Source: a virus
Taxonomy: Duplodnaviria; Heunggongvirae; Uroviricota; Caudoviricetes
Virus record (IMG/VR): IMGVR_UViG_2718218135_000001
Coordinates: 32,001-96,000 of that record
DNA length: 64,000 bases
Reading direction: 5' to 3' (one strand)
In this document: positions 53,281-54,880 of the stretch, in pieces
Layout of the letters: each line of letters starts with the position of its first letter
Position numbering within the stretch: the stretch's first letter is position 1
Made by a program: the position numbers and the translations under genes
Notes under the pieces: model-generated
Database searches by the model: none
Seen by the model: the letters and a program-made list of their open reading frames with translations, nothing else
Told to the model about the DNA's origin: nothing

Positions 53281-54305
53281 TGGATTGCCCCTATATTTCC
53301 AGACACTTTTTATCGCTTAACCCATTACTGGTTCGCCGCCGCAGATATTCCCGTGGAGAACGATATCCCAGTGCACTGTGCGGATGCCATTCGTTGTAAT
53401 GTTCGAAGGCCTCCGCAAGGTTCTTTGCCGCTGTTAACCCGTCAGGTTTTGGCATGATACTGATGTAGTCGCGCTTCATCGTTTTCACGAAGCTCTCCGC
53501 CATTCCGTTGCTTTCTGGACTACGTACCGCCGTATGTTTTGGCTCCAGTCCTACCATTCTGGCGAACTGACGCGTCTGATGAGAACGGTAGGCTGAACCG
53601 TTGTCTGTCAGCCACTCAACGGGGGATGTCGGCAGCCTGTTACCGAAGCGACGCTCTACTGCACCCAGCATGACGTCCTGCACGGTTTCACTGTCATATC
53701 CACCGGTACTTGCTGCCCAGTGAAGTGCCTCGCGCTCGCAACAGTCCAGCGCGAACGTGATCCGCAGTTTTTCACCGTTATCACAGCTGAACCCGAAGCC
53801 GTCGGAGCACCACCGCTGGTTACTTTCTCCAACGGCCACTTTCCCTCTATGCGCCCGCTTCGAGGGCGGTATTGCCGGTTTACGCTCAAGCAGCAGCGCA
53901 TTCTGACGCATGATGCGGTATACGCGTTTGGCATTGATCACCGCCATGTCGTCAGTTTCTGATTGTCTGCGCAGCAGTACCCATACACGACGATAACCAT
54001 AGGTGGGCAGATCGTCGATAACGGTATGGATACGAGCCAGCGCTTCAGTATCATCAGGCTTGCGCTTGCACCGACGATCCTGCCAGCCCTTCGACCGACG
54101 GGCCATGGCATGCAGTTGCGCACGTGAGACCCGGAGATAACGACTGACAAGGCTTATTCACCATCCTCCGGCAACAAGGGCACGTGCGCTATCCACTTTT
54201 TTTGTCGGCCATATTCAACGGCTTCTTTCAGCAGCTCGTTTTCCATGGTTTTTTTGCCCAGCAGGCGCTGTAACCAACTGTCTGGAGATTCATGGGGCTA
54301 GTCTA
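53281..54305 (-). mobile_element. IS2-like (IS3 family) element with internal deletion
   Basis: both terminal inverted repeats recognisable; about 1025 bp versus ~1.3 kb expected; orfA region mostly missing. Confidence 0.65.
53291..54106 (-). pseudogene. IS2-like transposase OrfB, N-terminally disrupted
   Basis: DDE transposase ORF lacking ~30 N-terminal residues; upstream reading frame broken. Confidence 0.6.
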
Positions 54306-54407
54306 CCATGTTTATGGAAACATAACATTAAAAATTATTTCGTAGTTTATTTTTTAGTTTAAATTGTCAAATTCATCGGTAATGCTACCAACTTATTGAT
54401 TTAGTGT

Positions 54408-54880
54408 ATTGAATCGCCACAGGTTTAATAGACACCTCAGAGTCATTTAAGATGACTTAAAGAGAGGTGCCCATGAGCGGTAAGCGTTATCCCGAAGAGT
54501 TTAAAATTGAAGCAGTCAAACAGGTTATTGATCGCGGTTATTCTGTTGCCAGCGTTGCAACACGTCTCGATATCACCACCCACAGCCTTTACTCCTGGAT
54601 AAAGAAGTACGGTCCGGATTCTTCCACTAATAAAGAACAGTCAGATGCTCAGGCCGAGATCCGCCGTCTCCAGAAAGAGCTGAAGCGGGTTACCGACGAA
54701 CGGGACATATTAAAAAAAGCGCGGCGTACTTCGCAAAGCTGTCCGACTGAGGTACGCCTTTATCCGTGACAACACCCATTGCTGGCCTGTCCGACTGCTT
54801 TGTCGGGTGCTGGATGTGCATCCGAGTGGTTTTTACGCCTGGCTTCTTCGTATAGCAGACTATTGCGCCCGATATAATAA
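54408..54880 (+). mobile_element. IS3-family remnant (5' part only)
   Basis: intact orfA followed by only ~35 codons of orfB-like sequence; left end approximate. Confidence 0.5.
54473..54769 (+). CDS. IS3-family transposase OrfA (HTH)
   Basis: N-terminal HTH and leucine-zipper-like region typical of IS3 OrfA. Confidence 0.65.
   Translation: MSGKRYPEEFKIEAVKQVIDRGYSVASVATRLDITTHSLYSWIKKYGPDSSTNKEQSDAQAEIRRLQKELKRVTDERDILKKARRTSQSCPTEVRLYP

Follow-up and report, generated by a model that had tools for sequence, protein, structure and literature searches.

Two decayed insertion sequences (ISs) of the IS3 family lie close together in a 64,000-nucleotide stretch of a Caudoviricetes record (IMG/VR record IMGVR_UViG_2718218135_000001, positions 32,001 to 96,000; hereafter the window, whose numbering is used throughout). 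They raise the question of whether such remnants are the scar of a past cargo acquisition, which of them marks it, and whether either could still move. An original prediction, made from the letters of the DNA, had placed the two elements back to back, about 100 bp apart. Alignments together with Pfam and NCBIfam searches find both of them there (Table 1; elements 1 and 2). The distance was well judged, the gap being 104 nt, but the elements are not immediate neighbors, as a 32-nt end of IS1 (54378-54409) lies between them. This IS1 end had been missed, as had a terminal piece of an ISEhe3-like element at 47424-47474.

Table 1. Coordinates, strand, and basis of the features at the locus
Feature	Position in window	Strand	Basis or remark
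ISEhe3-like 3' terminal 51 nt (nt 1179-1229, including the right inverted repeat, IRR), left island edge	47424-47474	+	BLAST
Cargo: pdcA fragment, doc, phd, fimbrial adhesin-like subunit, usher, chaperone, yehD-like major subunit	47475-53275	-	RefSeq, Pfam
Target-site duplication CCATG, left copy	53276-53280	.	Read from sequence
Element 1: IS2-group (ISEc27/ISEc36-like) IS3-family deletion derivative, 1025 bp	53281-54305	-	Alignments, codon comparison, NCBIfam/Pfam
IRR of element 1, with a 1-nt deletion near 53287	Low-coordinate end, from 53281	-	Alignment
orfB frame of element 1	54196-53291	-	Codon comparison
TGA in orfB of element 1, codon 13 (CGA>TGA)	54160-54158	-	Codon comparison
orfA remnant of element 1, 38 codons	54270-54154	-	Alignment
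Deletion junction of element 1	54270-54272	-	Alignment
Left inverted repeat (IRL) remnant of element 1, 33 nt (reference nt 1-33)	54273-54305	-	Alignment
Target-site duplication CCATG, right copy	54306-54310	.	Read from sequence
Native island sequence, 67 nt, which before element 1 inserted adjoined the sequence in front of the yehD-like gene	54311-54377	.	FG92-1 alignment
IS1 left-end fragment, first 32 nt, abutting the ISEhe3-like IRL	54378-54409	+	BLAST, by eye
Element 2: ISEhe3-like 5' part, nt 1-438 of 1229 bp	54410-54846	+	97% identity to L002:2501-2938
Frameshifted orfA of element 2	ORF 54473-54769	+	Alignment; Pfam HTH_Tnp_1
Junction leader: about 12-20 nt, from 54847 to about 54866, matching neither IS nor backbone, then backbone	54847-54877	.	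SSU5 and Cyrano comparison
Palindrome, 18 bp, TAAGTAGATACTTACTTA	54878-54895	.	Recurrent backbone motif
SSU5_042 homologue	54938-55750		Palindrome 43 nt upstream

The Replicon and Its Cargo Slot

The window matches the Escherichia coli plasmid pEC21Z137-115K and its relatives with 99.9% identity, and the backbone flanking the island described below shares about 91% identity with Salmonella phage SSU5. The flanking backbone genes encode a helicase, a primase, homologues of SSU5_042-SSU5_044, an ATP-dependent DNA ligase, and tRNA-Asn. SSU5-like backbone genes at this level of identity mark the replicon, as judged from its sequence, as an SSU5/pHCM2-type phage-plasmid of E. coli. In the RefSeq annotation of a 99.9% identical plasmid, element 1 is entered as a pseudogene ([quoted passage not shown]), and so is element 2 ("transposase: frameshifted; incomplete; missing C-terminus"). 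The pseudogene status of both remnants is already on record there and is known biology.

The island occupies a slot in this backbone, the short intergenic space between the primase gene and a palindrome box upstream of the SSU5_042 homologue. Phage-plasmids of the SSU5/pHCM2 type share the flanking backbone and differ in what the slot contains: one unrelated gene, SSU5_041, in SSU5; nothing in phage Cyrano, where 75 nt, palindrome included, separate the primase stop from the start of the SSU5_042 homologue; and a 7.4-kb island in the window. Homology to the SSU5 and Cyrano backbones restarts at about 54859-54874, and the palindrome is kept in both phages. With three or fewer mismatches allowed, the palindrome motif has 11 matches, compared with 0.05 expected. 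The box, which can be written TA[AG]GTA-N6-TAC[CT]TA, is labeled late-type in the original prediction; copies of it also precede replication-type genes.

Element 1, an IS2-Group Deletion Derivative

Element 1 has IS2-type imperfect terminal inverted repeats at both ends. Its description in the original prediction as IS2-like is correct as to the group, but its nearest named relatives are ISEc27 and ISEc36, not IS2. Global alignment to full-length relatives of 1331 bp (L005, L006) gives 976 identical positions out of 1025 (95.2%), against 80.9% identity to the 1331-bp IS2; the names ISEc27 and ISEc36 come from the PGAP labels ("ISEc27 family", "ISEc36 family") on 1331-bp copies in PLSDB. Sensitive blastn finds IS2 at about 80% identity in thousands of genomes, whereas megablast with the element 1 sequence yields matches in only 91 E. 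coli records, and it is therefore not IS2 itself. IS2 proper was ruled out as a candidate on the difference between about 80% identity and the 95% identity to the ISEc27/ISEc36-like copies.

Compared with the full-length copies, element 1 lacks reference nt 34-338. This internal deletion of 305 bp removed the inner part of the IRL, the promoter, the orfA start, and 82 of the 121 orfA codons, and with them the DNA-binding N-terminus. The A7G slippery site is retained, as is the complete orfB frame, open but for the TGA. A 271-amino-acid open reading frame covers positions 32-301 of the 301 in the NCBIfam model of IS2 TnpB (4e-161, under the curated cut-off because the N-terminus is absent), and a 30-amino-acid open reading frame covers positions 92-121 of the 121 in IS2 TnpA. 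The orfB translation matches the Pfam families rve (3.3e-18) and rve_3 (5.7e-19), as well as HTH_21, and keeps the residues of the DDE motif. The Pfam and NCBIfam matches point to one and the same family, and nucleotide alignment makes the family of each element unambiguous. Codon by codon, orfB differs from the reference at 42 places, 27 of them synonymous and 15 not; this ratio and the retained DDE residues indicate that most of the divergence is older than the inactivation. The element thus looks much as had been predicted, with both terminal repeats present (the IRL as a 33-nt remnant), orfA mostly lost, and orfB disrupted by the TGA at codon 13.

With the IS2 group, element 1 shares the terminal repeats (TAGACT.../TGGATT...), the A7G site, an orfB with rve and rve_3 domains, the DDE residues, and a 5-bp target duplication, which likewise flanks the 1331-bp reference copies. 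It differs from the group in the missing 305 bp, the nonsense codon in the OrfAB frame, and the 1-nt deletion in the IRR. Autonomy in this group takes an intact orfA together with an OrfAB fusion frame entered through a -1 slippery site, a combination that element 1 does not have. It is an IS2-group member by descent and a defective one.

The CCATG duplication is perfect over its 5 bp on both sides of element 1. A related island in E. coli FG92-1 carries the target uninterrupted (...ACATCTCTATGTATATGG...), with the site reading CTATG there (L015), and the alignment to this empty site crosses the insertion point, continues for 67 nt, and stops at 54377. An intact duplication and an unoccupied target together indicate that element 1 entered by simple transposition into cargo that was already in place, with the loss of the 305 bp following later, and that it marks no cargo boundary. 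In this respect the proposal that the pair of elements is a scar of cargo acquisition does not apply to element 1, which is an internal insertion; it does apply to the ISEhe3-like fragment, which sits at the junction of cargo and backbone.

The Cargo and Its Chromosomal Counterpart

The cargo interval, which also includes the region upstream of the fimbrial operon, has matches to the Pfam families Fic/DOC, PhdYeFM, Fimbrial, Usher, and PapD_N, and a GC content of 41-43%, the backbone having about 50%. Over 6.8 kb, the segment 47475-54270 shows 92.8% identity with a chromosomal island of E. coli YY76-1 that adjoins an integrase at tRNA-Phe. A chromosomal tRNA-Phe island is a likely source of the fimbrial and phd-doc cargo, to judge from this match. 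Such islands and the cargo have the gene order pdcA'-doc-phd-adhesin-usher-chaperone-yehD in common, as well as an IS2-group element just upstream of yehD. Unlike the island in the window, those on the chromosome are integrase-adjacent, contain an intact IS2 proper, and have no ISEhe3 ends. A literature search turned up no account of fimbrial genes carried as cargo by SSU5-type phage-plasmids.

The IS2 of the YY76-1 island is intact, with 95.6% identity to IS2 and 80.7% identity when set against the ISEc36-like reference. Its insertion point is 4 nt away from that of element 1, it points the same way, and no duplication flanks it. About 30 chromosomal islands have IS2 proper in front of the yehD-like operon. 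By this comparison the YY76-1 IS2 and element 1 are separate members of the IS2 group that inserted independently.

Element 2 and the Two Edges of the Island

By BLAST the fragment at 54378-54409 is about 90% identical to the termini of two IS1 copies (L011), and 29 of its 32 positions agree by eye; no other part of IS1 is present. Element 2 follows directly. It agrees at 425 of 438 positions (97%) with nt 1-438 of a full-length 1229-bp copy that an E. coli plasmid carries. Its identity to the phage SfIV copy is 92.5%; that copy is annotated as ISEhe3 in its database entry, as is one on a Raoultella plasmid, and the name is taken from there. The full-length reference copy on the E. coli plasmid has a 3-bp duplication, and its orfA of 92 amino acids agrees with the published length of ISEhe3 orfA (PMC4924310). 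A Raoultella plasmid match that apparently reached into the IS1-like flank was discarded as chance similarity of the target sequence.

Element 2 resembles ISEhe3 in its IRL, its A7G site, its orfA, which has an HTH_Tnp_1 domain, and its orfB, of which the first 32-43 codons remain. The original prediction had orfA kept. Its helix-turn-helix region is indeed intact for 83 codons, but the loss of 1 nt directly after the A7G run (at about 54719/54720) puts orfA out of frame from codon 84, changing its last nine residues, and the resulting frame is not that of orfB. Homology to the reference ends at 54846, which is 32 codons beyond the orfA stop. The early truncation of orfB had been recognized correctly, but not its position: it had been put exactly at the start of the palindrome, whereas the truncation point precedes the palindrome core by 31 nt.

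When the full-length reference was compared by BLAST with the whole window, its nt 1179-1229 were found at the left edge of the island, on the same strand, with 50 of 51 positions identical (L002:3679-3729). This piece, which lies directly after the primase stop codon, has no RefSeq annotation. ISEhe3 is accordingly represented here by an element split in two, its IRR present as a separate piece 6.9 kb from the rest, and its nt 439-1178 (740 nt, comprising the catalytic core and most of the DDE transposase) are absent from the window. The edges of the island (47424-54846) are an ISEhe3-like IRR on the left and an IRL on the right, in direct orientation. The triplets beside these ends are unlike, TAA by the IRR and TAT by the IRL; the two ends therefore come from two insertions, one in pdcA and one in the IS1 end.

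Neither element contains an intact full-length transposase frame in the alignments, and the original prediction that neither is transposition-competent agrees with the lesions found in both. Element 1 would be non-autonomous because the orfA promoter, start, and DNA-binding N-terminus are gone and the OrfAB frame is stopped, and element 2 because nt 439-1178, with most of the DDE transposase, are absent.

A Proposed Route of Capture

We consider it probable that 53281-54846 comprises three dead insertion sequences clustered at the right-hand edge of a captured, IS-bracketed island. The route of capture we infer solely from the topology of the locus. Part of a tRNA-Phe-type island would, in the donor replicon, have lain between two direct copies of ISEhe3, one in pdcA and one in the IS1 end. 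Recombination between these copies would have released a circle carrying the cargo and one IS, or else a linear fragment spanning both copies would have arisen. Illegitimate recombination would then have placed this DNA, broken inside ISEhe3, in the slot that separates the primase gene from the palindrome box. The remnants would now be immobile, passively inherited, and still decaying, with deletion probably favored by the capsid size limit of the phage-plasmid. Microhomology at the junctions of the island edges amounts to at most a few nucleotides and is ambiguous. Searches for a donor in which the cargo adjoins an intact ISEhe3, or at least a longer one, had no success: chimeric queries gave none in RefSeq E. 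coli or PLSDB, and in IMG/VR, GTDB representatives, and JGI metagenomes exact junction patterns recovered only the same structure.

The arrangement resembles that of composite transposons and of IS26 translocatable units in having cargo between the IRR and the IRL of two copies of the same IS in direct orientation. A composite transposon would have two complete IS copies and an outer duplication; here no complete copy is left and only the inner ends remain, the outer ends and with them any duplication being absent. The likeness is one of topology. Movement of cargo in the manner of IS26 is not known for IS3-family elements.

Alternatively, the island may have come with two full-length ISEhe3 copies, either by insertion of a composite transposon or by homologous recombination with an ISEhe3 resident in the slot, and two later, independent deletions may have cut away the outer parts. 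The direct-oriented fragments, with the cargo between IRR and IRL, would on this account be the inner half of a composite unit; internal deletions do happen in this region, as the 305 bp lost from element 1 attest; and decay is ongoing, as seen in the D4/D9-type relative described below. Both deletions, however, would have had to end within about 0-20 nt of the backbone boundaries (compare the 75-nt slot of Cyrano), and no relative with longer IS copies appeared in any of the collections searched. We regard arrival with full-length copies as possible but doubtful, and prefer entry by DNA already broken inside ISEhe3.

Distribution, Decay, and the Fate of the Remnants

Of 5426 complete E. coli genomes, exactly 25 contain the deletion junction of element 1 joined to its right flank, on plasmids and in the same context in every case; these genomes come from humans, livestock, pets, frogs, and sediment. 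The other matches in this junction search end at the deletion junction. The junction was found in no other context among the 5426 complete E. coli genomes, and it is absent from 185,579 species-representative genomes. Four lesions recur in a D4/D9-type relative, in which element 1 has the 305-bp deletion and the nonsense codon, and element 2 the ISEhe3 frameshift and the truncation junction; this relative does not have the 1-nt deletion in the IRR, and has an extra 1-nt insertion in the ISEhe3 orfA. The large lesions are thus old in the lineage, with small ones still accumulating. On the sequence comparisons, events would be dated in the order of IS1 insertion, the ISEhe3 insertions, capture, the 305-bp deletion and nonsense mutation, and finally sublineage-specific insertions and deletions.

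Whether the remnants might have been kept because they are useful, with element 1, read towards the yehD-like gene, supplying read-through or a hybrid promoter to a fimbrial operon that would otherwise be silent, or a truncated ISEhe3 product (OrfA') acting as a regulator in trans, is a further consideration. That the yehD-like operon is preceded by insertions of two different IS2-group elements, facing the same way at sites only 4 nt apart, would fit such a role, although paired insertions could equally mean a target hot spot. A sigma-70-like match spans the boundary of IRR and flank on the minus strand, but promoter-like matches number 3, against 2.4 expected in shuffled sequence, and the deletion of the IS promoter and orfA start leaves no obvious source of read-through. 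The helix-turn-helix region of orfA in element 2, intact over its 83 codons, is consistent with a regulatory product, whereas independent orfA frameshifts in different sublineages argue against selection. We judge usefulness of the remnants to be decidedly unlikely. A hybrid outward promoter at the IRR was itself rejected as a candidate, its consensus match being no better than in shuffled sequence.

It is highly improbable that element 1 is a MITE-like non-autonomous element mobilizable in trans by full-length ISEc27/ISEc36 or IS2: both of its ends and an intact 5-bp duplication are present, and full-length relatives 95% identical to it circulate on plasmids of Enterobacteriaceae, but its junction occupies a single locus in the E. 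coli genomes and none in the species representatives, its IRL is reduced to 33 nt, its IRR has lost 1 nt in the sublineage of the window, and IS3-family transposases act preferentially in cis. Trans-mobilized copies of the 1025-bp derivative were looked for with the same junction search, which returned one context only.

Implications for SSU5-Type Phage-Plasmids

Decayed IS copies at the borders of cargo are routine, and the finding in itself matters little. It has a modest value in what it says of the order of events, of the likely source of the cargo in a tRNA-Phe island, and of a variable cargo slot in the SSU5-type backbone, and it may be used in the annotation of phage-plasmids and in tracking the lineage represented by the 25 E. 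coli genomes. A more far-reaching reading holds jointly that the slot is a recurrent site of cargo capture, that the island entered it in one step, as a circle or fragment bounded by ISEhe3 and broken within it, and that the two independent IS2-group insertions, 4 nt apart, are the outcome of selection for activation of the fimbrial genes by the ISs; as a whole we think this unlikely. If it were true, the phage-plasmid would be a vehicle of lysogenic conversion for the adhesin.

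Variable Cargo Slot and the Left Edge of the Island

The interval from the primase stop codon to the palindromic box differs in content among three replicons, the phage-plasmid window, SSU5, and the phage Cyrano (see table), and is a variable cargo position. Immediately 3′ of the primase stop codon in the window lies a previously unannotated 51-nt ISEhe3 3′ end that includes the IRR. This sequence is the partner of the ISEhe3 fragment at the opposite end of the 7.4-kb island, and it forms the island's left edge.

Features of the window and of the replicons compared with it
Feature	Sequence	Position	Description
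Slot	Cyrano (L016)	3495-3569	Empty, 75 nt
Slot	SSU5 (L004)	5848-6813	One gene
Slot	Window	47424-54877	7.4-kb island
ISEhe3 3′ end	Window	47424-47474	Left edge
ISEhe3 fragment	Window	54410-54846	Partner of 3′ end
ISEhe3 first ~311 nt	Window	54410-54720	Up to slippery site
ISEhe3 ~311-nt remnant (example)	K-12		Pseudogene adjoining yagB
ISEc27/36-like insertion site	Window	53276-53281	
IS2 proper	YY76-1 chromosome (L011)	9379-10709	Intact
Terminator-like hairpin	Window	54803-54825	Followed by T-run
Direct repeat	Window	54902-54927, 54939-54964	26 nt, 81% identical
18-bp palindrome (starts)	Window	15625, 17139, 19070, 22167, 35486, 39248, 43994, 54878, 58489, 63349	TA[AG]GTA-N6-TAC[CT]TA

The Palindrome and the Right Junction

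The palindrome that closes the slot occurs in about 10 copies in the window; with up to three mismatches allowed, 11 matches were found (0.05 expected). Nearly all of the sites are intergenic, 4-100 nt 5′ of plus-strand open reading frames, some of which are replication-type genes, and the motif is kept in SSU5 and Cyrano. The palindrome probably serves the backbone as an operator or as a promoter element.

The SSU5_042 homologue follows the palindrome that bounds the slot. A direct repeat straddles its start codon, so that its 5′ leader resembles the gene's first codons; this pattern is also visible in Cyrano. About 110 nt 5′ of the gene, within the retained start of ISEhe3 orfB, is a terminator-like hairpin, a class of site (hairpin plus T-run) whose count does not exceed the shuffled expectation.

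Insertion Sequences in Related Genomes

The first ~311 nt of the ISEhe3 fragment match remnants that make up a large share of the match set across more than 2,000 Escherichia coli genomes; this piece is a very widespread, fixed insertion sequence fragment.

On the chromosome of E. coli YY76-1, an intact IS2 proper lies 5′ of a homologous yehD-like operon, 4 nt from the position that corresponds to the ISEc27/36-like insertion site and in the same orientation, with no target duplication at the YY76-1 element. About 30 chromosomal tRNA-Phe islands share this IS2 placement. A hot spot for insertion, or selection, may explain why the two insertions lie so near each other. Close to the YY76-1 IS2 there is also an IS2-like IRL fragment that stands alone.

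The sister lineage compared was a D4/D9-type plasmid, an IMG/VR contig of 114,159 bp (L007). It lacks the 1-nt IRR deletion seen in the ISEc27/36-like element at window 53287 and carries an additional 1-nt insertion in ISEhe3 orfA (relative to window 54503). Separate sublineages are thus gaining small lesions independently.
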